From Eubacteriales bacterium (GTDB lineage Bacteria > Bacillota > Clostridia > Oscillospirales > CAG-272), in contig JAZOUQ010000145.1 in the NCBI GenBank assembly GCA_045658185.1, forward strand, positions 1 through 51,246: a stretch of 51,246 nucleotides of DNA. Reading direction: 5' to 3'. The notes under the pieces were generated by a model. That model did not search any database and was not told the DNA's origin. It saw nothing but the letters and a program-made list of their open reading frames with translations. This document shows, piece by piece, positions 1 through 49,818 of the stretch. Position 1 is the stretch's first letter; the number at the start of each line of letters is the position of its first letter. A program made the translations under genes and the position numbers.

Positions 1-602
1 ATTTTTCTGCATGCATCTGTTCCAAGTATATCTGCATCGGGGTTGCTTTCTGCATAGCCTTTCTTTTGCGCATCCAGAAGTGATTCCTCAAATCCTGCGC
101 CGTAAGAGAACATTTGAGTGAGAATGTAGTTGGTGGTTCCGTTGAGTATACCGCTTATTTTATTTACCTTGTTTGACGAAAGGTCATTTATCAAGGGTCT
201 TATGATCGGGATACCGCCACCGACACTCGCTTCAAACAAATATCTTACGCCGTTCTTCTTGGCAAGTTCACAAAGCTCAACTCCGAATGTAGACACAACC
301 TCTTTGTTCGAGGTAACTACGTTCTTACCCGCCTCAAGACAAGCCTTTGTAAAATCATAAGCAGGGTGAGAGCCGCCCATCATTTCGGCAACCACGGTAA
401 CCTCGGGGTCATTAATGATAGTGTCAAAATCGTGAACTATGCGGTCACCAAAGGGACTGTCGGGAAAATCTCTGAGATCGAGAATATATTTTATATTATA
501 TTCACAGCCAAGTCGCTGTTCAATTATAGCTTTGTTTTCCGTTAGAACCTCGGCAGTTCCGCTACCTACCACACCGAAGCCTAAAAGTGCAATGTTGATC
601 AT
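1..602 (-). CDS. hom: homoserine dehydrogenase, 5' part (3' end runs off the window start)
   Basis: Reverse-strand translation from the ATG (complement of 600-602) reads MINIALLGFGVVGSGTAEVL...NVVTSNKEVV...EASVGGGIPIIRPL...LNGTTNYILT...AESNPDADI. This shows an NAD-binding GxGxxG followed by homoserine-dehydrogenase catalytic-domain motifs. It is absent from the ORF track because no stop lies in the window. The + strand track ORFs 130-360 and 439-666 are its shadows. Confidence 0.9.
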   Translation of the reverse strand, partial: MINIALLGFGVVGSGTAEVLTENKAIIEQRLGCEYNIKYILDLRDFPDSPFGDRIVHDFDTIINDPEVTVVAEMMGGSHPAYDFTKACLEAGKNVVTSNKEVVSTFGVELCELAKKNGVRYLFEASVGGGIPIIRPLINDLSSNKVNKISGILNGTTNYILTQMFSYGAGFEESLLDAQKKGYAESNPDADILGTDACRK

Positions 603-669
603 AATTTTACCTCTCAAAAATGTGTATACTAATATAATAACACATTTTCTTAGAAATTGCAAATAAATA

Positions 670-698
670 TTGAAAAAAAATCAAAAATATGGTAAAAT
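670..698 (+). promoter_or_regulatory. sigma-A-type promoter for the DUF4364 gene
   Basis: TTGAAA (670-675), 17-nt spacer, TAAAAT (693-698), with TG at the extended -10 position. An AGGAG RBS and the ATG at 742 lie downstream. Confidence 0.45.
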
Positions 699-741
699 AT
701 TTACTATAAGCAGATAAAGTGTCCCTAAAAAGGAGTTTTTT

Positions 742-1287
742 ATGAGTTCAGCAATAGGAAGCATCAATAACGTCAAGATATTTATTCTTTATTTAATGAA
801 AAACGTAAATTATCCTATGGATTTTTTTACAATAAACGATATAGTTATGCAAACCGATTACGTAATGTATTTGGATTTTGCGGTTGCGTTTAATTCTTTG
901 CTCGATTCAGGCTTGATCGAGAAAATAGAAGAGGACGGCGAGGAAAAGTACCGCGTGACGAAAAACGGCTCAATGGTTGCGGGAGAGCTTAAAAGTGATA
1001 TTCTTTCAAGTATACTTGATAAATCTCTTGCGGCAGCACTCAGATACCTTGACTTTAAAAAGAGAGGCGTTACGCTGAAGTTTGATATAAATGAAATGGA
1101 CGATGGAAATTATCGTATAGAAACAAGCTTTATAGAGGCAGGGCAGTGTGTCTTTTCACAAATGATAGTAGTAGATTCACTTGATAGAGCTAAAAGAATG
1201 AAGCAAAATTTCTATGAGCGACCCGAGGCACTTTACAGAGGCGTTCTTGCATTGTTGTCAGGAAACGTTAATTATATTTTTGATTGA
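742..1287 (+). CDS. DUF4364-family protein (PadR-like winged-helix fold suspected)
   Basis: 181 aa with RBS AAAAGGAG. The N-terminal pattern KIFILYLMKNVNYPMDFFTINDIV...YLDFAVAFNSLLDSGLIEKIE...KYRVTKNG matches my memory of the DUF4364 signature. No HMM was run. Confidence 0.6.
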   Translation: MSSAIGSINNVKIFILYLMKNVNYPMDFFTINDIVMQTDYVMYLDFAVAFNSLLDSGLIEKIEEDGEEKYRVTKNGSMVAGELKSDILSSILDKSLAAALRYLDFKKRGVTLKFDINEMDDGNYRIETSFIEAGQCVFSQMIVVDSLDRAKRMKQNFYERPEALYRGVLALLSGNVNYIFD

Positions 1288-1489: not shown

Positions 1490-2074
1490 ATGAGCAAAAC
1501 ATCCCAAAACAGCGAAATATTGCAGCTTATTTCTCAAGTCAGAAACGGAAATGAACCAGCCTTTGAGCAGTTGCTTCAAAAATATACCCCCTTGATCGAG
1601 GGTGCTGTTGCAAGAGTTATCAGCGACGAGGCGTACGTTACACACAAGGAGGATCTCAGACAAGAGGCAACCGTTGTGTTTTACAATTCTATATTGACTT
1701 ATGACATACAGCAGCACGAAGTAGAGTTCGGTTTGTACGCAAAAATTTGCGTGACAAACGCACTTGTTTCTCAGGTCAGGCTGTTGCAAAAGAGAAAAGC
1801 CGAAAGACTTTCTGAAAAATCCGATGAACAGTTGTTTTTATGCGATTCGGAGGACCCGTCAGCACAAATGCTGGAGCAAGAGAGCTTACGAAAACTTTAT
1901 TCGGTCATAAGAGGAAATCTTTCCGAGTTTGAATACCGTGTATGGCAGATGTATATGTCAGGAAGAACCGCAAGAGAAATCGGTTTGGCAGTGCACAAGG
2001 ACGAAAAGTCGGTAAATAACGCCATATACCGTATACGAAAAAAGTTGAGAGTAGTTCTCCACAGTAACAATTGA
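1490..2074 (+). CDS. sigma-70 family RNA polymerase sigma factor with SigH-like layout
   Basis: I prefer the ATG at 1490, 4 nt after GGAGG (1481-1485), over the track's GTG at 1460. Region 2 reads EDLRQEATVVFYNSILTYD...FGLYAKICVTNALVSQVRLLQKRK. The region 4 HTH reads LSEFEYRVWQMYMSGRTAREIGLAVHKDEKSVNNAIYRIRKKL. The spacing resembles B. subtilis SigH. Confidence 0.8.
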   Translation: MSKTSQNSEILQLISQVRNGNEPAFEQLLQKYTPLIEGAVARVISDEAYVTHKEDLRQEATVVFYNSILTYDIQQHEVEFGLYAKICVTNALVSQVRLLQKRKAERLSEKSDEQLFLCDSEDPSAQMLEQESLRKLYSVIRGNLSEFEYRVWQMYMSGRTAREIGLAVHKDEKSVNNAIYRIRKKLRVVLHSNN

Positions 2075-2175
2075 ATGATACGGGAAACCGAATCAGATAG
2101 ACAGGCCCATCCGCAGATTTGTCCATAACTGACGGAAAAGGGGAAAATTCATAACAACAAAGCGAGGTAAAACCA

Positions 2176-2493
2176 ATGAACGAAGAAGTAAGAGTCGATA
2201 TGGAAAACGAGGAGTTTGTTGACGAAACTCTGGTATGTAAAGAGTGCGGCAACGAATTTGTTTTCACAGCTGGCGAGCAGAAGTTCTACAAAGAGAAGGG
2301 CTTTATGAACAAGCCTAAGAGCTGCAAGGCATGCCGTGATGCAAAGAAGAACGCAGGAAAGGCTGCTCGTGAGTACTTCACCACAACTTGTGCAAAGTGT
2401 GGCGGCGAGGCTAAGGTTATATTCCAGCCCTCCAACGACAGACCTGTTTACTGCAGTGCTTGTTTCGAAGAAATTAAGAACGCAAATAACTGA
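2176..2493 (+). CDS. zinc-ribbon protein with a CxxC-x17-CxxC domain
   Basis: CKEC...FVFTAGEQKFYKEKGF...CKAC, then CAKC, 17 residues, CSAC. Four CxxC pairs are counted directly in the translation. Confidence 0.75.
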   Translation: MNEEVRVDMENEEFVDETLVCKECGNEFVFTAGEQKFYKEKGFMNKPKSCKACRDAKKNAGKAAREYFTTTCAKCGGEAKVIFQPSNDRPVYCSACFEEIKNANN

Positions 2494-2509
2494 TTTGTAT
2501 TAAATATAT

Positions 2510-2537
2510 CCTCTTGGCGGAAATATCTGCCAAGAGG
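2510..2537 (+). other. stem-loop without a U-tract
   Basis: CCTCTTGGC (2510-2518) / GCCAAGAGG (2529-2537). It is not followed by T residues, and its function is unknown. Confidence 0.4.
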
Positions 2538-2553
2538 CATTGAATAATATGTA

Positions 2554-2591
2554 AACAACACAGGCTTGTGGACAGCCTGTGTTGTTTTTTT
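2554..2591 (+). terminator. rho-independent terminator
   Basis: Stem AACAACACAGGC (2554-2565) / GCCTGTGTTGTT (2575-2586), followed by TTTTT. Confidence 0.8.
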
Positions 2592-2667
2592 GAAAAATAT
2601 GTGCAAATTAAACAAAAAATATATATTTATTTCTACATTCGCGGTTGAAAAATTACAATAAAATCTC

Positions 2668-2696
2668 TTGAAAAAAATGACAAATTAATGTATAAT
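2668..2696 (+). promoter_or_regulatory. sigma-A-type promoter for the EF-G paralogue
   Basis: TTGAAA (2668-2673), 17-nt spacer, TATAAT (2691-2696). Confidence 0.55.
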
Positions 2697-2760
2697 CTAA
2701 AAGAGAGAGATTCTCAATAATTTGTTTTTTTCGCCGATGGCGAAGAAGGAGGACAAACCG

Positions 2761-4821
2761 ATGGCTAATATGGAAACCAAAAAAATCAGAAACGTTGCTT
2801 TGCTCGGACACGGAGGAAGCGGAAAAACTTCACTTGTTGAAGCAATGCTTTATATAACGGGAACGACTGACCGTTTGGGTAAGGTTGCCGATGGAAATAC
2901 CGTATCTGACTATGATGCAGAAGAAACGAAAAGAGGATTTTCACTTTCAACGTCACTTATGAATATGACGTGGAAGGATTGTAAGATAAACGTTCTTGAT
3001 ACCCCCGGATATCTTGATTTTGTCGGCGAGGTAAATCAGGCACTCAGAGTTGCGGACAGTGCAGTAATTCTGGTTGACGGTAAGGCAGGTATTGAGATAG
3101 GAACGGAGCTTGCTTGGAGTTATGCGGATGCTTACGGACTTCCCAGAGCGTTCTTTATAAACAAGTTTGACGATAACGATGCTCGTTTTGCAAGAGTTCT
3201 TGACGACCTGCACGTTACCTTTGGTAAGCACGTTTGTCCCTTGACTATTCCTATGGTTAAGGACGGCGTTGTTACAGGTTGTATCGACCTTATAGACCAG
3301 TCTGCACACGTATTTGATAACAACGGACGACACAGCGTAGAGATCATTCCCGAGGAATCAATGGAGGCTGTTGAAAAGTACCGTGATATGCTTATGGAGG
3401 CTGTGGCGAGTACCAACGAGGATCTTATGATGAAATACTTCGAGGGAGAAGAGATAACTCATATGGAAGCTATCAATGCTGTCCACGAAGGTATTATTCA
3501 CGGTGAGATAGTTCCCGTATTCTGCGGAGCAGCTACCAAGCTTTGGGGTGTATGGACTATGCTCGATAAGATAACCGAATCCTTCCCAAGACACACAGCA
3601 AAGAAAAACGAAACCCTTGAGGACGGAACTAAGACAGAGATAATTCCCGAGGGTGAGCCTTCATTGTTCGTATTTAAGACCGTCGCTGACCCGTTTGTAG
3701 GAAAGATGTCCTACTTCAAGGTTATGAATGGTACTGTAAAGCGTGATATACTTATGCAGAACAACACAACCGGTGAGAGCGAAAAGCTTGCACATATCTA
3801 TGTGATGAACGGAAAGAAGCAGACTGAGGTTGACGAGCTTTGTTGCGGTGATATTGGTATGGTTGCAAAGCTTACAAGTACCAATACTAACGATACACTC
3901 ACATGGAATAAGACTATGAAGTATGCTTCTATTACATACCCCACGTCTTATTATACAAAGGCAATGACCCCTGTGTCCGCAAAGGACGAGGGTAAGATCT
4001 CCCAGAGTATCGTCAAGATGCTGGAAGAGGATCTTACACTTAAGTATGAAAACAATGCCGAAACCAAGCAGATGCTCGTATCGGGTCTTGGAGATATGCA
4101 CCTTGCAGTTCTCGCCGCTAAGATGAAGAATAGATTCGGAGTTAGTGTTGAGTATAACGATCCTAAGATCGCATACCGTGAAAAGATAACCAAGAGAGCT
4201 GACGTTGAAGGTAAACATAAGAAGCAGAACGGCGGTTCGGGTCAGTACGGACACGTTAAGATCCGCTTTGCTCCTGCTGAGAGCGAGGGACTTACCTTTA
4301 CCGTTTCGGTTGTTGGCGGAACTGTACCCAAGAACTTCTATCCCGCAGTAGAAAAGGGACTTCAGGACGCTATGGTAAAGGGTGTTGCAGGATTCCCGTT
4401 GGTTGGACTTGCGGCTGATCTGTACGATGGATCTTATCACGACGTTGACTCGGACGAAATGTCCTTTAAGATGGCGGCAAACCTTGCATACAAGAAGTGT
4501 CTTGAGCAGGCTGCTCCCGTTCTTCTTGAGCCTGTCGGAGATTTGGATATTACCATTCCCGATTCTCTCGTGGGCGACGTAATGGGCGACCTCAATAAGA
4601 GAAGATCTGCTGTTATGGGTATGGATCCCGCAGAGGGCAAGAAGGGATATACCGTTGTTCACGCAATAGCACCTAAGGCTGAATTGGTAGAATATCCGAT
4701 AGCTCTTCGTGCTATGACTCAGGGCAGAGGCTCATTTGAATACTCCGTAAACGGCTATGATACCGTTCCGGGTAATATAGCAGCGAAGATAGTTGAAAAC
4801 TATAAGAAGGAAAACGCATAA
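2761..4821 (+). CDS. elongation factor G family GTPase (stand-alone paralogue)
   Basis: I prefer the ATG at 2761, which follows AAGGAGG. G1 is GHGGSGKT, G3 is DTPG and G4 is NKFD. EF-G domain IV/V motifs follow (GGSGQYGHV, GSYHDVDS). The gene is not in an rpsL-rpsG-fusA-tuf context. Confidence 0.9.
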   Translation: MANMETKKIRNVALLGHGGSGKTSLVEAMLYITGTTDRLGKVADGNTVSDYDAEETKRGFSLSTSLMNMTWKDCKINVLDTPGYLDFVGEVNQALRVADSAVILVDGKAGIEIGTELAWSYADAYGLPRAFFINKFDDNDARFARVLDDLHVTFGKHVCPLTIPMVKDGVVTGCIDLIDQSAHVFDNNGRHSVEIIPEESMEAVEKYRDMLMEAVASTNEDLMMKYFEGEEITHMEAINAVHEGIIHGEIVPVFCGAATKLWGVWTMLDKITESFPRHTAKKNETLEDGTKTEIIPEGEPSLFVFKTVADPFVGKMSYFKVMNGTVKRDILMQNNTTGESEKLAHIYVMNGKKQTEVDELCCGDIGMVAKLTSTNTNDTLTWNKTMKYASITYPTSYYTKAMTPVSAKDEGKISQSIVKMLEEDLTLKYENNAETKQMLVSGLGDMHLAVLAAKMKNRFGVSVEYNDPKIAYREKITKRADVEGKHKKQNGGSGQYGHVKIRFAPAESEGLTFTVSVVGGTVPKNFYPAVEKGLQDAMVKGVAGFPLVGLAADLYDGSYHDVDSDEMSFKMAANLAYKKCLEQAAPVLLEPVGDLDITIPDSLVGDVMGDLNKRRSAVMGMDPAEGKKGYTVVHAIAPKAELVEYPIALRAMTQGRGSFEYSVNGYDTVPGNIAAKIVENYKKENA

Positions 4822-43710: not shown

Positions 43711-45189
43711 ATGGGTGAACACTCAATTTATAGGGATATAGCCGAAAGAACGGGCGGAGATATTTATATCGGAGTTGTAGGCCCTGTCAGGACGGGGAAA
43801 TCTACGTTTATTAAACGCTTTATGGAGGCATTGGTTTTGCCTAATATAGGAGATGAGTATTCCCGTGACAGAGCAAGAGATGAAATGCCACAGACGGCAG
43901 CAGGAAAAACCGTTATGACGACCGAGCCGAAATTCGTTCCCGATGAGGCGGTCACCGTAAAGCTGGACGATTGTGCGTCTTTGAGAGTAAAAATGATAGA
44001 TTGCGTGGGATATATCGTTGGCGAGGCACTGGGTACGATAGAAAACGGTCAGCCGCGAATGGTACATACTCCGTGGCAGGAAGAACCTATGCCCTTTGTT
44101 GAAGCTGCTGAAATGGGTACGGAAAAGGTTATCAAGGAGCATTCCACTATTGGTATGCTGATAACAACAGACGGAACTATAGGTGACATTTCAAGAGAGA
44201 GCTACGTTGATGCAGAAGAGCGTGTGGTTAAGGAATTGAAGGATATTGGTAAACCCTTTGCAATGATACTTAATTCCGCAGATCCAACCTCCGAAAAGGC
44301 AATATCTCTTGCGTATGACCTTGAAGCAAAATATAAGGTCCCCGTTGCACTTGTAAGCTGTATAGATCTTGATTCTGAGGATATAAAAAACATTCTTGAT
44401 CTGGTATTACACGAATTTCCCGTATCTGAACTTTGTATAAACATACCCTCTTGGATGAACGCCATAGACAGCTCCCACGAAATAAAAACGTCTATTTATT
44501 CCACAGTGCGTTCAGTAGCCGAAAAAATTCAAAAGGCGGGCGATATTAAAGACGCGGTAAAAGCTTTCTCGGAAAACGAATATATCAAGGCATTTACTTT
44601 GGATAACGTAGACCTTGGAACGGGCAAAGCATATGTAAGTCTTGATTTTGACAGAGCACTTTATTTCGATGTGATAAGTGAGCTTACAGGCTTTGATATT
44701 GACGGAGAAGAAACGCTTGTCAGACTTCTGCGTGAGTATGCTGAAGCAAAGGAGAATTTCGACAGGGTAGCCGAGGCGTTAAAGCTTGCCGAAGAAAAGG
44801 GATACGGAATCGTTATGCCCACGATAGATGAGTTGCATCTTGAAGAGCCGCAGATCATTAAGCAATCGGGCGGTTATGGGGTGAGATTGTGTGCATCTGC
44901 TCAATCAATACATATGATAAGAGCGAACATAGAAACGGAGATAAATCCCATTGTTGGTACAGAGCAGCAGTCGGCTGATCTGGTTAAATATATGCAAAGT
45001 GAATTTGATAGTGACCCGTCAAAGATTTGGGAGTCTAACGTTTTCGGAAAGAGCCTGTATGAGCTTGTAAACGAGGGACTTCATACCAAGCTCGAGCATA
45101 TGTCCGAGGACTCCAGAACCAAGCTCTCCGAAACGCTTGAACGCATCATAAACGAGGGAAGCAGCGGTCTTATTTGTATTATACTTTAA
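43711..45189 (+). CDS. spoIVA: stage IV sporulation protein A
   Basis: ATG after GGGAGG. IYRDIAERTGGDIYIGVVGPVRTGKSTFIKRFME (Walker A), about 492 aa, is the hallmark of SpoIVA. Confidence 0.95.
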   Translation: MGEHSIYRDIAERTGGDIYIGVVGPVRTGKSTFIKRFMEALVLPNIGDEYSRDRARDEMPQTAAGKTVMTTEPKFVPDEAVTVKLDDCASLRVKMIDCVGYIVGEALGTIENGQPRMVHTPWQEEPMPFVEAAEMGTEKVIKEHSTIGMLITTDGTIGDISRESYVDAEERVVKELKDIGKPFAMILNSADPTSEKAISLAYDLEAKYKVPVALVSCIDLDSEDIKNILDLVLHEFPVSELCINIPSWMNAIDSSHEIKTSIYSTVRSVAEKIQKAGDIKDAVKAFSENEYIKAFTLDNVDLGTGKAYVSLDFDRALYFDVISELTGFDIDGEETLVRLLREYAEAKENFDRVAEALKLAEEKGYGIVMPTIDELHLEEPQIIKQSGGYGVRLCASAQSIHMIRANIETEINPIVGTEQQSADLVKYMQSEFDSDPSKIWESNVFGKSLYELVNEGLHTKLEHMSEDSRTKLSETLERIINEGSSGLICIIL

Positions 45190-45195
45190 AAATTA

Positions 45196-45237
45196 TCGTC
45201 GAGGACGACATTGAATGTTGTCCTCGACGAGTTTTTT
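45196..45237 (+). terminator. rho-independent terminator
   Basis: TCGTCGAGGAC (45196-45206) / GTCCTCGACGA (45220-45230), followed by GTTTTTT. Confidence 0.85.
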
Positions 45238-45360
45238 ATGGACTAATTAAAAAAATTATGATATAATTATCTAAACCACCCAACCTTTTTATTCTGATTT
45301 GTGTCTTAAAGACAAGCGCTTATGAAAGGGAATTCCTAATTTTCAGAAAGGAGAGTGCAT

Positions 45361-48300
45361 ATGTACTATCAGAACGACTCGGACGAAACTTTGGTAATGC
45401 TTACACTTGCAGGTGAGCAATCTGCATATGAAGTTTTGGTAACAAAATATCAAAGTGCAGTAATTGCTTCCGCAGTATCGGTGACACAGAACCGATTTAT
45501 GGCTGAGGATGCCGCACAGGATGCTTTCGTTACGGCTTGGATGAAGCTCAATACTCTGCAAGATCCCTCCAAATATGGCTCTTGGGTATGTCGTATAGCC
45601 AAGAACTGTGCTTTGAATATGATAAACAGATATCGCAGCTTTCTTCCTCTTGACGTAGTAGATAACTTGGAAGCTTACAGTGACAGATCGCAAAATCCCG
45701 CAGAGTTTTATGCACTGTCCGAAGAGCGAAACGAAGTAAACAAGAGCATTGAGATGTTGCCCGAAAAGGTACGGCAGATCATTCATCTGCATTATTTTGA
45801 GGACCTTTCCATTGCGGAGATCGCAGACCGTATGCGAATTTCCGAAGGAACGGTCAAGTGGCAGCTTCACGATGGAAGAAAACGAATCAGAAAGGAACTT
45901 TGCGCTATGAATGAAAAGTATAGTGATACACTCGTTATGCGTGTTATGAAAAAGGTTGAGGAACTTAAATTATGGCAGGTCAAGAACAATAAGACAGGCT
46001 TTGAGAAGGTATATAAGGAAGTACTTCGAGAGGTGGAAGAGCTTCCCGAGTGTACTCAAAAGCAGCACGCCCTTGCCGATGTGCTTATGCGTGGCTGGTG
46101 GTGGCTGCCCGGCAAAAAGAACGACGCTATGTTTGCACGTATAGTCAATGCCGCTATGGAGAGTAAAAACGAGGAGGTTATGACCTTTATCGTTACCCGT
46201 GAGGATTCAAAGGTATATGGCGGTGCGAAAATAGATTTTATTCGTGAGAAGCAGATTCCCCGACTTGAAAAGGCGGGCTTTGTAAAAACTCTCGGACGGG
46301 AGTGGTTCTGGCTTGGATATTATTTGTTTGAGGAGGGCAAAACAGAGGAGGGAAATGCCGCCTTTGCTAAGGTGGAAGAGATACTCGAAAGCGGCGACGA
46401 CTACCGTATTCTTGTCCCCTATGCAAAAATGATGGAAGAACAGCTGTCTACCCGCTATAAAGAAACGGCAAAAGAACGGTTTATTATTGGCGGTTCTGCC
46501 GATGAATATCGCATAATTGACGGTCAGCCTCGCGCTTGGAAGGATAACGGCTTTAGTGAGGGATGGCTTGGCTCCATTGACAGAAGGGGACAGAATATAT
46601 TCCGAAACGCATCTTGCTGCGACGGTTATTTCTTTGCTGACTTATCTCTCGGTGAATCTTTTATAGGATCCGACGGAACAAAGCTTACTTACGTATCAAA
46701 TAACGAAGAAGTGGAAACACCTGCAGGTAAATTCGATAACTGTCAGCTTTGGGAAATAAGACGGTGGACGGATACACAAAAAATAGTATGCCGAAGCTAC
46801 TACAAGGACGGTATTGGTATAGTCCGTCAAGATCATATAACCGACGGTGTGAGTGACGTCCATCTGCTATCCGCCTACGACGTCAAGGGTGGAAGCGGTC
46901 TTCTCCCGTTTTATAAGGGTAATATCTGGGAATATGCTACCCAATATCCCTCCGATATACTCTCTGCCGAATTGAAGATAACCGTTTCCTTTGCCGATGA
47001 TGAGAAGGTTGTGCTTTCCCGTTGGACAAATATTGAACGAATCGGATACGACCAAAGCTCCTGGTCGGATACGGTACAAGAGATTGCAAATGAGTATGCT
47101 CACAGCAAAAAGGACGGATCGTATATATGCGACGTTTATCCTGCTATCGAGCGTGCCGAGCGACTTGCCGTAACGCCTATGGAAAAAGCGCATACGAAAG
47201 CTGCGGCATCGGTGGCGAGAAGAATATTGGCTACGGATACCACCTTCAATCCCGATCATACGGCCACGGGACATTGGAATTTCTTTTGTAGGGAATATAT
47301 TCGTAAAAAATCGGATTCTCTTTATCTTACCGATTACAATTCTCGTTGGAGCTTTGAGTGGAAGTGTACGGGGGTTATGCCCGGTGCGGAACCCCCCATT
47401 CTTTACAATGATATCTTGGGAATATTGCAGGATGCCACAAACTGCGTTTGGTCGGACGAATGGCGTATCGGTGCATCCCCAATCGTAGAATACACCAGGT
47501 ATTCAAACGATGTAAGAACTCAGATCACTTGTGAGGATGGCGGTACTGTCACAACTAAAGCAGGGACTTTTGAAAACTGCTTCAAGCTCTGTCTTGATAT
47601 TGACGGAATGACTGACGGATTGTCTTACCGAGGCGGCAAGAAGGTTTACTATTTTGCCGAGGGTATTGGTATCGTCCGTACCGAAAATGAGTATTTGGGC
47701 GGTTCAAGAACGGCGGTTTACGAGTTGACCTCTTATGAAGGTACAGGCGAAGGCTTTATGCCGCTTACTGACGGTCTTGTGCGTCGATATGATGCTCTTG
47801 AGCTTACCGACGGATTCGTTGGCTCGGTAGAATATACCTACGTAGCGGACGAGGACGGAGATATTGTCGTATTTGCAGATCTCACGGGTATTCGTGAGCT
47901 TCCGCCTCCAATTACACAGTACAGTGCTATTCAAGGCGAGATAATAGAGGATATGATATGGTCCAAAAAGGAATGGAACAAGGGACATATGAAAAACAGT
48001 GCAAACAATTTCCATCTCCTTCTTCATTTCCTTGCAAGACCCAGCAGAAATGCTTGGAATTCCAATAGAACCATTGAGATACAGGGTTTCTATATGAAGT
48101 TAATGGAAGTGCTGGGCGAGGACGGTCAGGTTCCTCCTGCTTGGTATGGACATTATGCCCGTACTGCACTTATAAGAGCGGCAGCATTGCTGTTCAGAGA
48201 AAGATATGATGAGGGATATGCTTCCCTTGAAACTGCAATGGCCTACTGTGAAAAGGTAGCATCATTCAAAAAGGGAGATCTTCTTGACACGGGAAATCAG

Positions 48301-48519
48301 TATCTCTTTGGCGGTGTTAAGTATGAATACGGTAATGGCGTGATTCTTCTTAAAGACGGCTCAAAAGAACCCGTTGCGTACGATTGGGAGTTGGAATTTA
48401 GTGGATCGAATCTCTATCGTTGCATTACCGCCCCCAGTGGTTGGGAATGGCTTAATCCCGTTCGTAACGATGAACGCTTTAAGGAATACGTTGACCGTGC
48501 CAGAAAGTTTGTTGATTAA
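45361..48519 (+). CDS. ECF-type sigma-70 factor fused to an ~860-aa uncharacterised soluble C-terminal extension
   Basis: ATG 45361 lies 5 nt after AAAGGAGAG. Region 2 reads EDAAQDAFVTAWMKL...WVCRIAKNCALNMINR. Region 4 reads LPEKVRQIIHLHYFEDLSIAEIADRMRISEGTVKWQLHDGRKRIRKEL. The same frame then runs uninterrupted for ~860 more codons with no obvious TM segment. Confidence 0.8.
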   Translation: MYYQNDSDETLVMLTLAGEQSAYEVLVTKYQSAVIASAVSVTQNRFMAEDAAQDAFVTAWMKLNTLQDPSKYGSWVCRIAKNCALNMINRYRSFLPLDVVDNLEAYSDRSQNPAEFYALSEERNEVNKSIEMLPEKVRQIIHLHYFEDLSIAEIADRMRISEGTVKWQLHDGRKRIRKELCAMNEKYSDTLVMRVMKKVEELKLWQVKNNKTGFEKVYKEVLREVEELPECTQKQHALADVLMRGWWWLPGKKNDAMFARIVNAAMESKNEEVMTFIVTREDSKVYGGAKIDFIREKQIPRLEKAGFVKTLGREWFWLGYYLFEEGKTEEGNAAFAKVEEILESGDDYRILVPYAKMMEEQLSTRYKETAKERFIIGGSADEYRIIDGQPRAWKDNGFSEGWLGSIDRRGQNIFRNASCCDGYFFADLSLGESFIGSDGTKLTYVSNNEEVETPAGKFDNCQLWEIRRWTDTQKIVCRSYYKDGIGIVRQDHITDGVSDVHLLSAYDVKGGSGLLPFYKGNIWEYATQYPSDILSAELKITVSFADDEKVVLSRWTNIERIGYDQSSWSDTVQEIANEYAHSKKDGSYICDVYPAIERAERLAVTPMEKAHTKAAASVARRILATDTTFNPDHTATGHWNFFCREYIRKKSDSLYLTDYNSRWSFEWKCTGVMPGAEPPILYNDILGILQDATNCVWSDEWRIGASPIVEYTRYSNDVRTQITCEDGGTVTTKAGTFENCFKLCLDIDGMTDGLSYRGGKKVYYFAEGIGIVRTENEYLGGSRTAVYELTSYEGTGEGFMPLTDGLVRRYDALELTDGFVGSVEYTYVADEDGDIVVFADLTGIRELPPPITQYSAIQGEIIEDMIWSKKEWNKGHMKNSANNFHLLLHFLARPSRNAWNSNRTIEIQGFYMKLMEVLGEDGQVPPAWYGHYARTALIRAAALLFRERYDEGYASLETAMAYCEKVASFKKGDLLDTGNQYLFGGVKYEYGNGVILLKDGSKEPVAYDWELEFSGSNLYRCITAPSGWEWLNPVRNDERFKEYVDRARKFVD

Positions 48520-48527
48520 AATAAACG

Positions 48528-48556
48528 CCGATAGCGACCTTTACGGTCGCTATCGG
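48528..48556. other. perfect 12-bp stem-loop without a + strand U-tract
   Basis: CCGATAGCGACC (48528-48539) / GGTCGCTATCGG (48545-48556), followed by AAAAGAAACG. It lies 17 nt upstream of the XRE gene ATG. Confidence 0.5.
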
Positions 48557-48780: not shown

Positions 48781-48812
48781 ACCGCTGAGATTTCTCTCGG
48801 CGGTGATTTTTT
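48781..48812. terminator. terminator hairpin between the convergent XRE and recombinase genes
   Basis: ACCGCTGAGA (48781-48790) / TCTCGGCGGT (48795-48804) with one G-U pair, followed by GATTTTTT. Confidence 0.75.
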
Positions 48813-49818
48813 AATCATCCACGCCGCCTTGACCCGAAAGGGGATTTTTAGTCATTGCTTCCTCCATACTTCGGTTGCTGACGTGTGTATATATTTGAGT
48901 AGTATTGAGCTGTTCGTGACCGAGAATGTCTTTAAGTACTCTCACGTCTACGTCACCCGTTTGATACATCAGCGTTGCGGCTGTGTGTCTGAGCTTGTGA
49001 ACGGAATAGTGCTTGGATTCAAGCCCAGCCATGTCCAAGTATTTATAAACCATCCATTGAACGGTCTTTACGCTCAAACGTTGCTCTCGATTGCTGATAA
49101 ACAAAGCATGGCTCATACAAGCCTTGTGCTTTTCTCCAAGACGCTCTTCGAGATGGTCAGCAAGAGCTGTGCGGCAAGCCTCATTGAGATAGATTATTCT
49201 TTGCTTGTTTCCTTTTCCCGTAACAGTCAGGGAACGAAGCTTTGCGTCAACGTCTTGAAGATTTATGCCTACAAGCTCGGAAACTCGCATTCCGCAGTTT
49301 AAGAAAAGCGTTACTATTGCGTAATCTCGAACGGTTGTTTTGGATTCCTTATCATTTTTTACTGCGTTGAGAAGATCCAGACTTTCTTCAAGCGTTAAAT
49401 ACTTAGGCAACGCTTTCTTTCTTTTGGGAGTTTCTATATCAATAGCGGGATTGGTATCAAGCAACATACGTTTTGTAACAAGATATTTGAAAAAGCCCTT
49501 TATAGAAGACAGCTTCCTTGATTTTGCGGCGGCAAGATTACCCCGCACGTTATCCGTATACATAAGAAATTCGTAAATATCGTCGGTAGAGATATTTTTG
49601 ATAAAATCAAGGTCGATATTTCGTATATCAATTTTTTCAAATTCCTCGGAATCGGTAGCGATATTTTCATCTCTTGCAATCAGAAATCTAAAAAAGACAC
49701 GTAAGTCAAGCAAATATTCCGATATCGTTTTTTCAGATGCATTTTGAATGACAGATTTGTATGACGCGAAATCTCTAACCAAGGGTGGCAGGGAATTGAG
49801 CGGAACGCTATATGCCAT
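48811..49818 (-). CDS. tyrosine recombinase, XerC/XerD family
   Basis: An N-terminal SAM-like domain (SEKTISEYLLDLRVFFRFL) precedes the catalytic R...HKLRHTAATLM...LGHEQLNTTQIYTHV. Confidence 0.85.
   Translation of the reverse strand: MAYSVPLNSLPPLVRDFASYKSVIQNASEKTISEYLLDLRVFFRFLIARDENIATDSEEFEKIDIRNIDLDFIKNISTDDIYEFLMYTDNVRGNLAAAKSRKLSSIKGFFKYLVTKRMLLDTNPAIDIETPKRKKALPKYLTLEESLDLLNAVKNDKESKTTVRDYAIVTLFLNCGMRVSELVGINLQDVDAKLRSLTVTGKGNKQRIIYLNEACRTALADHLEERLGEKHKACMSHALFISNREQRLSVKTVQWMVYKYLDMAGLESKHYSVHKLRHTAATLMYQTGDVDVRVLKDILGHEQLNTTQIYTHVSNRSMEEAMTKNPLSGQGGVDD

Follow-up and report, generated by a model that had tools for sequence, protein, structure and literature searches.

A sigma factor gene with a long soluble extension

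The stretch of DNA analysed here (the window) is contig JAZOUQ010000145.1 of assembly GCA_045658185.1, 51,246 nt from a Eubacteriales bacterium of the Oscillospirales (CAG-272), and this report concerns a gene on its plus strand that encodes an extracytoplasmic function (ECF) sigma factor fused to a very long C-terminal extension. An earlier note, made from the letters alone, had picked out this fusion as a possible sensor and sigma factor in one polypeptide. Upstream of the gene lie uvrC, a methyltransferase gene (rsmD), coaD and spoIVA, the last recognised by its Pfam SpoIVA domains and indicating that the host is a spore-forming Firmicute. Downstream are a gene for a 67-aa XRE-type helix-turn-helix (HTH) protein, a tyrosine recombinase gene and two unassigned open reading frames (ORFs). 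None of the adjacent genes (SpoIVA, the XRE-type HTH protein, the recombinase) encodes an anti-sigma factor, as had been observed before. A terminator-like hairpin at the end of spoIVA is predicted to isolate the sigma gene from upstream transcription. The features of the locus are collected in Table 1.

The gene encodes an ordinary ECF-type sigma factor that is complete, with sigma2 and sigma4 but without sigma3, and continues into a soluble C-terminal extension of ~865 residues. Its frame (45355..48519, plus strand) opens at a GTG, and the ATG at 45361 yields the 1,052-aa product. The start proposed in the earlier note, an ATG behind a well-placed ribosome-binding site, was borne out: AAGGAG lies 7 nt before this ATG, and the N-terminal sequence MYYQN is the consensus start among homologues. 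Also as anticipated, Pfam Sigma70_r2 (E=7e-10) and Sigma70_r4_2 (E=1e-14) were found at the N-terminus of the window protein (residues in Table 1), and the same scan gave no match to region 3 or region 1. The presence of regions 2 and 4, together with the absence of 1.1 and 3, identifies an ECF (group 4) factor. The NCBIfam model for ECF sigma factors, TIGR02937, scored 90.7 bits (cut-off 42.9), while no equivalog or subfamily model of NCBIfam reached its cut-off, the best being Sig70_bacteroi1 and SigW (~99 bits vs. cut-offs of 126-209). Foldseek searches with the whole model returned ECF sigma structures only (AlgU, SigW, RpoE and SigK).

The absence of a transmembrane helix from the extension, first judged by eye, is upheld by Kyte-Doolittle hydropathy in 19-residue windows, on which our judgement rests: the highest mean, 0.98, falls inside sigma2, and neither a transmembrane helix nor a signal peptide is expected. 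A pattern search of the protein for HxxxCxxC, the zinc-finger anti-sigma (ZAS) motif, and for CxxC found neither.

An AlphaFold2 model of the full-length protein, built with 44 homologues in the alignment, has a mean predicted local distance difference test (pLDDT) of 79 and a predicted TM-score (pTM) of 0.63. It divides the extension into an all-helical domain of nine helices, two beta domains separated by a helical linker, and a mainly helical tail (Table 1). Beta domain 1 is predicted with particular confidence when modelled alone (pLDDT 93, pTM 0.89). The helical domain contains one canonical tetratricopeptide repeat (TPR) motif; a profile of 33 diverse extensions matches consensus TPR proteins over this single repeat (~residues 312-355), and Pfam TPR_2 is found in 13 of 33 diverse members of the family.

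The two beta domains are related to each other. The earlier note had described two copies of a ~60-residue module; the duplication is real, while the ~60 residues turn out to be the core of a DUF3108-like domain of ~160 residues. Residues 451-586 align with 729-871 by BLASTP (E=1e-6), and residues 417-578 with 689-869 by hhalign of family profiles (probability 99%, E=3e-18), so that the duplicated unit is ~160 residues long. Pfam DUF3108_like (PF21347) matches the protein in two stretches (45.6 bits vs. a gathering cut-off of 27, E=1e-11), and is present in 32 of the 33 diverse members. In the profile of 33 extensions, beta domain 2 matches 4fvs, a 'putative lipoprotein' (E=2.5e-5), and 3fzx of Bacteroides fragilis, a 'putative exported protein' (E=4.8e-4); the profile of beta domain 1 matches both as well. 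The conserved core of the duplicated domain reads TPAGxFxxC ... GxGIVR, and the DUF3108-like proteins of known structure share it as TPAGxFxC ... GxGIVR, with the cysteine one position off in the same motif. These two proteins are stand-alone, exported and ~215 residues long, whereas the family described here has two cytoplasmic copies fused to a sigma factor. The statement in the earlier note that the extension could be placed in no family therefore no longer holds: a TPR motif was recognised in it, as were two DUF3108-like domains with 3fzx and 4fvs as relatives.

The tail is helical as first proposed, with helices at residues 854-1051 modelled at pLDDT ~90, but it is an accessory part, missing from about half of the family. 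The idea that it duplicates the helical domain was rejected, hhalign giving a probability of only 30%. No enzyme family was detected in the extension by Pfam, profile or Foldseek searches.

Table 1. Features of the fusion gene, its leader and its protein (positions in the window; residues of the 1,052-aa protein; a dot marks features without strand)
Feature	Position	Residues	Strand	Basis
Terminator-like hairpin with T run, 16-pair stem, end of spoIVA	45196..45230		+	hairpin scan
Sigma-70-type promoter-like site, TGGACT-17-TATAAT, extended TG, 10/12 match	45239..45267		+	promoter scan
ECF-type promoter (predicted): -35 CCCAACCTTTT 45279-45289, 13-nt spacer, -10 GTCTTAA 45303-45309	45279..45309		+	alignment, position weight matrix
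Palindrome 1, AAGCGCTT, about predicted transcription start	45314..45321		.	palindrome count vs. shuffles
Palindrome 2, GGAATTCC, leader	45329..45336		.	palindrome count vs. shuffles
Ribosome-binding site AAGGAG, 7 nt 5' of ATG	45348..45353		+	sequence reading
Sigma-fusion ORF, complete, 1,052 aa + stop	45361..48519	1-1052	+	ORF listing, homologue search
Sigma2		8-92		AlphaFold2 model
Sigma region 2	45436..45636	26-92	+	PF04542; Foldseek matches to ECF sigma structures
Sigma2-sigma4 linker		97-127		AlphaFold2 model, low confidence
Sigma region 4 HTH	45733..45888	125-176	+	PF08281, PF04545
Sigma4		133-183		AlphaFold2 model
Sigma/extension junction		175-189		AlphaFold2 model, low confidence
Junction and first extension helices, candidate sigma-contacting module	45895..46164	179-268	+	conservation near sigma2/sigma4 level
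All-helical domain, nine helices; canonical TPR motif ~312-355	45913..46449	185-363	+	AlphaFold2, TPR profile matches
Beta domain 1, DUF3108-like, invariant Cys461	46480..47040	374-560	+	Pfam, AlphaFold2 (pLDDT >90), conservation, hhalign
Helical linker	47062..47232	568-624	+	AlphaFold2
Beta domain 2, DUF3108-like, Cys740 equivalent to Cys461	47272..47892	638-844	+	Pfam, AlphaFold2, profiles, hhalign
C-terminal tail, mainly helical, accessory	47920..48516	854-1052	+	AlphaFold2, family lengths

A conserved family in gut and rumen Clostridia

A search of 5.8 billion proteins with the window protein yielded >120 full-length relatives at 66-94% identity, all of them with sigma and DUF3108_like domains, and a further 120 at 33-60% identity were recovered with short-form members as queries. 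Overall, the architecture is shared by >230 full-length homologues that are non-redundant and 33-94% identical, and the fusion is under selection. An exhaustive search with the extension only gave 416 clusters at 50% identity, 155 of them with E <1e-30, and in nearly all full-length clusters the match began at residue 188-200 of the target, implying that a sigma part precedes it in nearly all of these. At least 285 species carry a relative, counted in GTDB with one genome per species. The 80 species genomes listed are all metagenome-assembled genomes (MAGs) from faeces, rumen, caecum and colon of ruminants, horse, rabbit, chicken and human, labelled Oscillospiraceae, Acutalibacteraceae, Eubacteriales, Clostridia and similar. 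The fusion gave no match in the PADLOC library of anti-phage defence systems.

Family members fall into three size classes: ~840 aa without a tail, ~1,050 aa with the helical tail, as in the window protein, and ~1,130 aa with a third helix-plus-beta unit. Among 237 non-redundant full-length members, 121 have at least 1,000 aa and 116 are shorter. In six proteins of ~1,125-1,141 aa (P0126, P0142, P0280, P0297, P0306 and P0320) the tail is replaced by a third unit made of a helical linker and a DUF3108-like domain, which shows that the number of modules is variable.

Conservation was computed by column over the 237 full-length members. The sigma domains score 0.70 (sigma2) and 0.74 (sigma4), residues 190-268 score 0.67-0.72, and the remaining extension 0.45-0.56. 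The sequence DTLVxRVMKKVEELKLW directly follows sigma4 in almost all members, with ADVLxRGWWWLPG next. Cys461 (1.00) and Cys740 (0.97) are among the best-conserved residues of the extension; each stands in the AGxFxxC motif of its beta unit, so that their positions correspond.

The earlier note had asked whether a mis-join, stop or frameshift might lie at the junction. The fusion is genuine and not an assembly artefact: hundreds of assemblies have the same frame, and contigs of four gut metagenome runs over 45150-46400 show substitutions and no indel within the ORF. In four runs (X1, X2, X3 and X5), contig depth rises several-fold at 45864-45947, the sigma4/junction region, and unitigs end there. 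We attribute these breaks, and false calls of sigma-less extensions, to near-identity of this DNA among several co-occurring species. Three apparent extensions without a sigma factor (P0162, P0165 and P0228, ~660-686 aa) were dismissed as truncations, since they start 35-182 nt from a contig end; in P0162, the one case read upstream, the last residues of sigma4 (...GRKQLRKEYG) are still encoded in frame. Judging by the sequences collected, the extension appears essentially never to occur without the sigma core.

No gene family recurs beside the fusion in 80 related loci, including any anti-sigma gene, and the largest cluster of neighbours, an ABC ATPase, is found at 9 loci. Nor is a protease gene conserved near the fusion in these loci. 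The lack of a conserved neighbour fits a self-contained regulator. A link to the downstream XRE gene, suggested as worth a search in the earlier note, was not sustained, this gene adjoining the fusion in only ~7 of ~80 loci. In the window, the stop codon of the fusion is followed, ahead of the XRE gene, by a hairpin with a 12-bp stem (48528-48556). This hairpin is terminator-like on the minus strand only, and since no T run follows it on the plus strand, read-through into the XRE gene is possible. No neighbour apart from the XerC/D-like tyrosine recombinase of the window (48811-49818, minus strand) is shared with another locus; a copy of it with 77% identity adjoins the fusion in L011 (L011:1-798).

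The promoter, the leader and the search for a regulon

To characterise the leader, 200 nt upstream of the start codon were aligned for 76 loci. The element CCCAACCTTTT-N13-GTCT(A/T)(A/T)A, with a spacer that is rarely 12 or 14 nt, is present in ~75 of the 76, down to 35-40% protein identity. A position weight matrix (PWM) built from the aligned sites gives the window site 30.8 bits, and no other site in the 51-kb window reaches 12 bits. Across the 886 kb of DNA that flanks the fusion in related loci, a score of at least 17 is reached by 76 sites, 75 of which stand in front of a fusion gene. ECF promoters are typified by an AAC-containing -35 and a GTC-containing -10 element spaced in this way, and autoregulation is typical of ECF sigma genes. 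The conservation of an ECF-type promoter before the gene argues for an active, autoregulated sigma factor, and the element is predicted to be the autoregulatory promoter of the sigma gene. Just upstream is a sigma-70-type promoter-like site (Table 1), whose TATGATATAAT block is found again at many related loci. We consider this site a candidate basal promoter, which suggests a dual arrangement of a basal and an autoregulated promoter. A search for RNA runs that might provide evidence on the transcription start found none containing this sequence.

Two short palindromes follow the ECF-type promoter. The centre of palindrome 1 lies 13-19 nt past the G of GTCT; it is perfect over at least 8 nt in 63% of 70 loci (vs. 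2.4% of shuffles), examples being AAGCGCTT, GAGCGCTC, GAGTACTC, GCAGCTGC and TGAAAGCTTTCA. Palindrome 2, ~15 nt further on, is perfect over at least 8 nt in 41% of 53 loci (vs. 3.5% of shuffles), with GGAATTCC, CGGAAATTTCCG and ATGAAAATTTTCAT as examples; for both figures it should be noted that the loci are related and do not count as independent trials. Both palindromes are fixed in position and differ in sequence by clade (loci L001-L080), and this turnover of sequence with symmetry retained argues for selection on the palindromes. The RNA of the window leader folds no better than shuffled sequence (z=-0.9). The palindrome centres are self-complementary, which would be needless in a hairpin loop, and we lean towards the palindromes being DNA operators, putatively of a dimeric regulator.

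The same motif was used to look for other targets. The one additional full-score site in the 886 kb of flanks (L015:1174-1204) lies 2 kb upstream of the L015 fusion gene and precedes a 120-aa membrane ORF (1244-1605) and a 503-aa protein with MutS domain V (1625-3136), making this MutS-domain-V locus a possible member of the regulon in that species. An exact-motif scan of metagenomes returned 120 loci, many of them from unrelated environments and ~12 with fusion genes, and no recurring target family. It also returned several genes for ordinary ECF factors of ~190 aa, only 22-30% identical to the fusion core. In L189 (reverse strand, reverse-complement position 1857), the motif lies downstream of the fusion and of a longer XRE-type gene, and precedes a gene for a 229-aa protein with two transmembrane segments and no Pfam match. 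Many copies of asnA were also returned, the motif overlapping a sigma-A -10 element there, probably by chance. As a separate observation, a recurrent human-gut gene for a ~480-aa lipoprotein has the exact motif 58 nt upstream (L085, L087, L108, L113, L126, L130 and ~20 more loci). Its product has a signal peptide with the lipoprotein Cys and a C-terminus weakly similar to EF-Tu domain 2, and the -10 element of its motif lies within a 7-bp inverted repeat, CGTCCGT ... ACGGACG.

Proposed control of the sigma core and comparison with known ECF groups

Among the modes of ECF regulation, C-terminal extensions rank second in frequency and are counted in 19 groups of the 2021 reclassification (PMC7826278). 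They include TPR domains in ECF42, SnoaL-like domains in ECF41, ECF56, ECF205, ECF294 and ECF295, cysteine-rich extensions in ECF238, ECF287 and ECF288, DUF1835 in ECF264 and a multi-transmembrane type in ECF263 (PMC7826278); a 2022 review adds WD40-like repeats in ECF57, and extensions of up to ~400 residues with a ZAS motif plus transmembrane segments in ECF48, ECF52 and ECF53 (PMC8999054). In ECF41, ECF42, ECF238 and other groups such extensions replace the anti-sigma factor (PMC7826278, PMC8999054). The window family shows the marks of such groups: an extension of >50 aa that is retained throughout (>230 non-redundant proteins), and no anti-sigma gene encoded alongside in the 80 loci. ECF42 (e.g. 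Sven_0747 of Streptomyces venezuelae) resembles our family in having an ECF core with a soluble, TPR-containing extension, no anti-sigma factor and a proposed regulation in cis (PMC7826278, PMC8999054). The ECF42 extension, however, is ~200 residues long and all TPR, whereas that of the window family has ~865 residues with one clear TPR and two DUF3108-like domains, and in some members a tail. The hosts also differ: ECF42 is found mainly in Actinobacteria and Proteobacteria with a conserved YCII-related neighbour, and the window family in gut Clostridia with none conserved. The ECF42-type extension corresponds to Pfam DUF6596, and the window protein and the 33 diverse members contain no match to it.

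ECF41 factors (SigJ of M. tuberculosis, Ecf41 of B. licheniformis) are likewise single-polypeptide ECFs without an anti-sigma factor, and have a fold of a small-molecule-binding type after sigma4 that contacts the core domains. Their extension is a SnoaL_2 fold of 100-150 residues, and the window family differs in fold, size and phylum; no SnoaL-like domain, the trait of ECF41, ECF56, ECF294, ECF295 and ECF205, was matched by Pfam in the window protein or the 33 members. With ~865 residues the extension is indeed several-fold longer than those of ECF41 and ECF42, as the earlier note had claimed. ECF48, ECF52 and ECF53, together with IutY-type fusions of sigma and anti-sigma factor, share with the window protein a long C-terminal extension (up to ~400 residues) on an ECF core. 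In ECF48, ECF52 and ECF53 this comprises a zinc-finger anti-sigma motif and one or two transmembrane helices, with release thought to occur by regulated proteolysis (PMC8999054); the window protein has neither. The WD40 repeats or beta-propeller of ECF57 were not matched in the Pfam scans. The traits of ECF41, ECF42, ECF48/52/53 and ECF57 are thus missing here. ECF262 (SFB89493.1 of Ruminococcus albus) comes from the same bacterial order and has a regulatory extension of unstudied mechanism (PMC8999054, Table 2). Compared by its listing there, this group may or may not be the window family; no match in our homologue searches was labelled R. albus.

The main texts of PMC7826278 and PMC8999054 describe neither a DUF3108-like nor a ~860-residue soluble ECF extension, and a literature search found nothing relevant on DUF3108, YmcC, or ECFs of Ruminococcus or Oscillospiraceae. 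The family is a case of an ECF factor with a fused extension, a principle already known; new are the size and domain make-up of the extension and the defined promoter.

Taken together, the architecture and its conservation, the lack of a transmembrane helix and of a partner gene, and the promoter lead us to favour, by a modest degree, a cytoplasmic one-component ECF sigma factor that is positively autoregulated and controlled in cis by its own extension. Residues 1-183 (sigma2-linker-sigma4) would bind core RNA polymerase and recognise CCCAACCTTTT-N13-GTCT(A/T)(A/T)A, that is, the promoter of the fusion gene itself, downstream of the basal sigma-A-type promoter. The ~865-residue extension would remain in the cytoplasm, and its first ~80 residues would most likely pack on sigma4 and/or sigma2 and set the engagement of polymerase or DNA. 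Since residues 190-268 are under as much constraint as the sigma domains, they are proposed to be this contacting and transducing element. The TPR-containing helical domain and the two DUF3108-like domains, each of the latter with its invariant cysteine, would form an input module that binds a small molecule or a partner protein and relays the change to the sigma-proximal helices; the input could be a small molecule, a redox change at the invariant cysteines, or a protein. Control may either be inhibitory, as in ECF41, or the extension may be required for activity, as in ECF42.

Several results weigh against control in cis. The PWM scans of the window and of the 886 kb of flanks and the metagenome motif scan yielded no regulon other than the gene itself. 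The AlphaFold2 pLDDT falls below 50 at the junction and in the sigma2-sigma4 linker, and the pTM is only 0.63, as mentioned above. Mean-field direct coupling analysis for contacts between sigma factor and extension (effective number of sequences, Meff, ~177) was dominated by gap artefacts and discarded; the proposed modulation of sigma activity by the extension draws indirect support from the high conservation of residues 190-268. As to ligands, Foldseek with the isolated beta domain 1 gave no match with E <0.02 (best E=0.024), and thus no significant relative with a known ligand; 3fzx, assigned a 'YmcC-like fold', was matched with E=0.048 and a TM-score of 0.25, and partial matches to START/Bet v1-type ligand binders are weak (TM-score at most 0.36) and unusable for ligand inference. 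A more specific version of control in cis, which we consider less likely than not, is that the fusions form an as yet undescribed class of giant cytoplasmic one-component ECF factors restricted to uncultured gut and rumen Oscillospirales. Tandem DUF3108-like domains with invariant cysteines would directly sense an intracellular metabolite or redox signal and switch the sigma factor via the sigma-proximal helices, and the operator pair at the transcription start would provide a further level of regulation.

Control by a partner protein, as proposed for ECF42, is the alternative we take most seriously, although we think it rather unlikely. The extension would then be needed for activity and serve mainly as a docking platform, formed by its TPR and beta domains, for an unlinked partner, instead of sensing a ligand directly or inhibiting the core. 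In its favour, the extension has a TPR motif, a type of domain that usually mediates contacts between proteins, and the TPR extensions of ECF42 are required for activity (PMC8999054). The C-terminus is also modular, lacking a tail in some members and having a helical one or a third beta unit in others, which would fit exchangeable interaction surfaces. There is, however, no conserved neighbour to encode the partner, whereas ECF42 has a YCII-related one (PMC8999054), only one TPR motif is clear, and the extension consists mostly of beta domain rather than TPR.

Activation by proteolysis would have an inhibitory, anti-sigma-like extension cut near the junction by a cytoplasmic protease such as Clp or Lon, freeing a sigma factor of ~185 residues. 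Strong conservation of the junction (residues 175-189), combined with its predicted flexibility, would suit a processing or recognition site, and activation by proteolysis has been put forward for further ECFs that carry anti-sigma-like extensions as fusions (PMC8999054). The known examples, however, are membrane-anchored, and the window protein is without a ZAS motif, transmembrane helix or known anti-sigma domain and without a conserved protease gene nearby. A multi-domain, strongly conserved extension of 865 residues is also large for a mere inhibitory plug. We consider this explanation improbable.

Still less probable is an extension with a function unrelated to sigma control, as an enzyme, carrier or scaffold that tethers RNA polymerase or couples transcription to another process. 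The PDB relatives of the DUF3108-like domain are lipoproteins or exported proteins without an assigned function, and the cysteine that is invariant in each beta domain might have a catalytic role. Against this, the extension seems essentially never to be separated from the sigma part, its sigma-proximal segment is its most conserved part, and no enzyme family was recognised in it. Finally, a mis-joined or frameshift-corrected fusion, which the frequent breaks of metagenome contigs near sigma4 and the junction might have suggested, has a negligible chance of being correct, given the same continuous frame in hundreds of assemblies made independently in many studies and from many hosts, the indel-free ORF part of 45150-46400 in four runs, and high nucleotide conservation among co-occurring species as the explanation of the breaks.

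ECF sigma factors are a major signalling system of bacteria, and their control without an anti-sigma factor is understood for few groups only. The extension described here is the largest soluble one among those described in the literature examined, it is built of domains of unknown function, and the family is common to hundreds of species of uncultured gut and rumen Clostridia. If the extension does act as a sensor, the DUF3108-like domain, otherwise known only from exported proteins, would gain a first role, and the known ways of controlling a sigma factor without an anti-sigma factor would be widened; the signal, once defined, would provide a first function for this domain. The sharply defined promoter motif could make the system usable as an orthogonal, and possibly ligand-switchable, transcription part. 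A second kind of extended ECF may be represented by a 588-aa ORF (L119:755), which has an ECF core 33% identical over residues 12-191, a different long extension and the same type of promoter motif.

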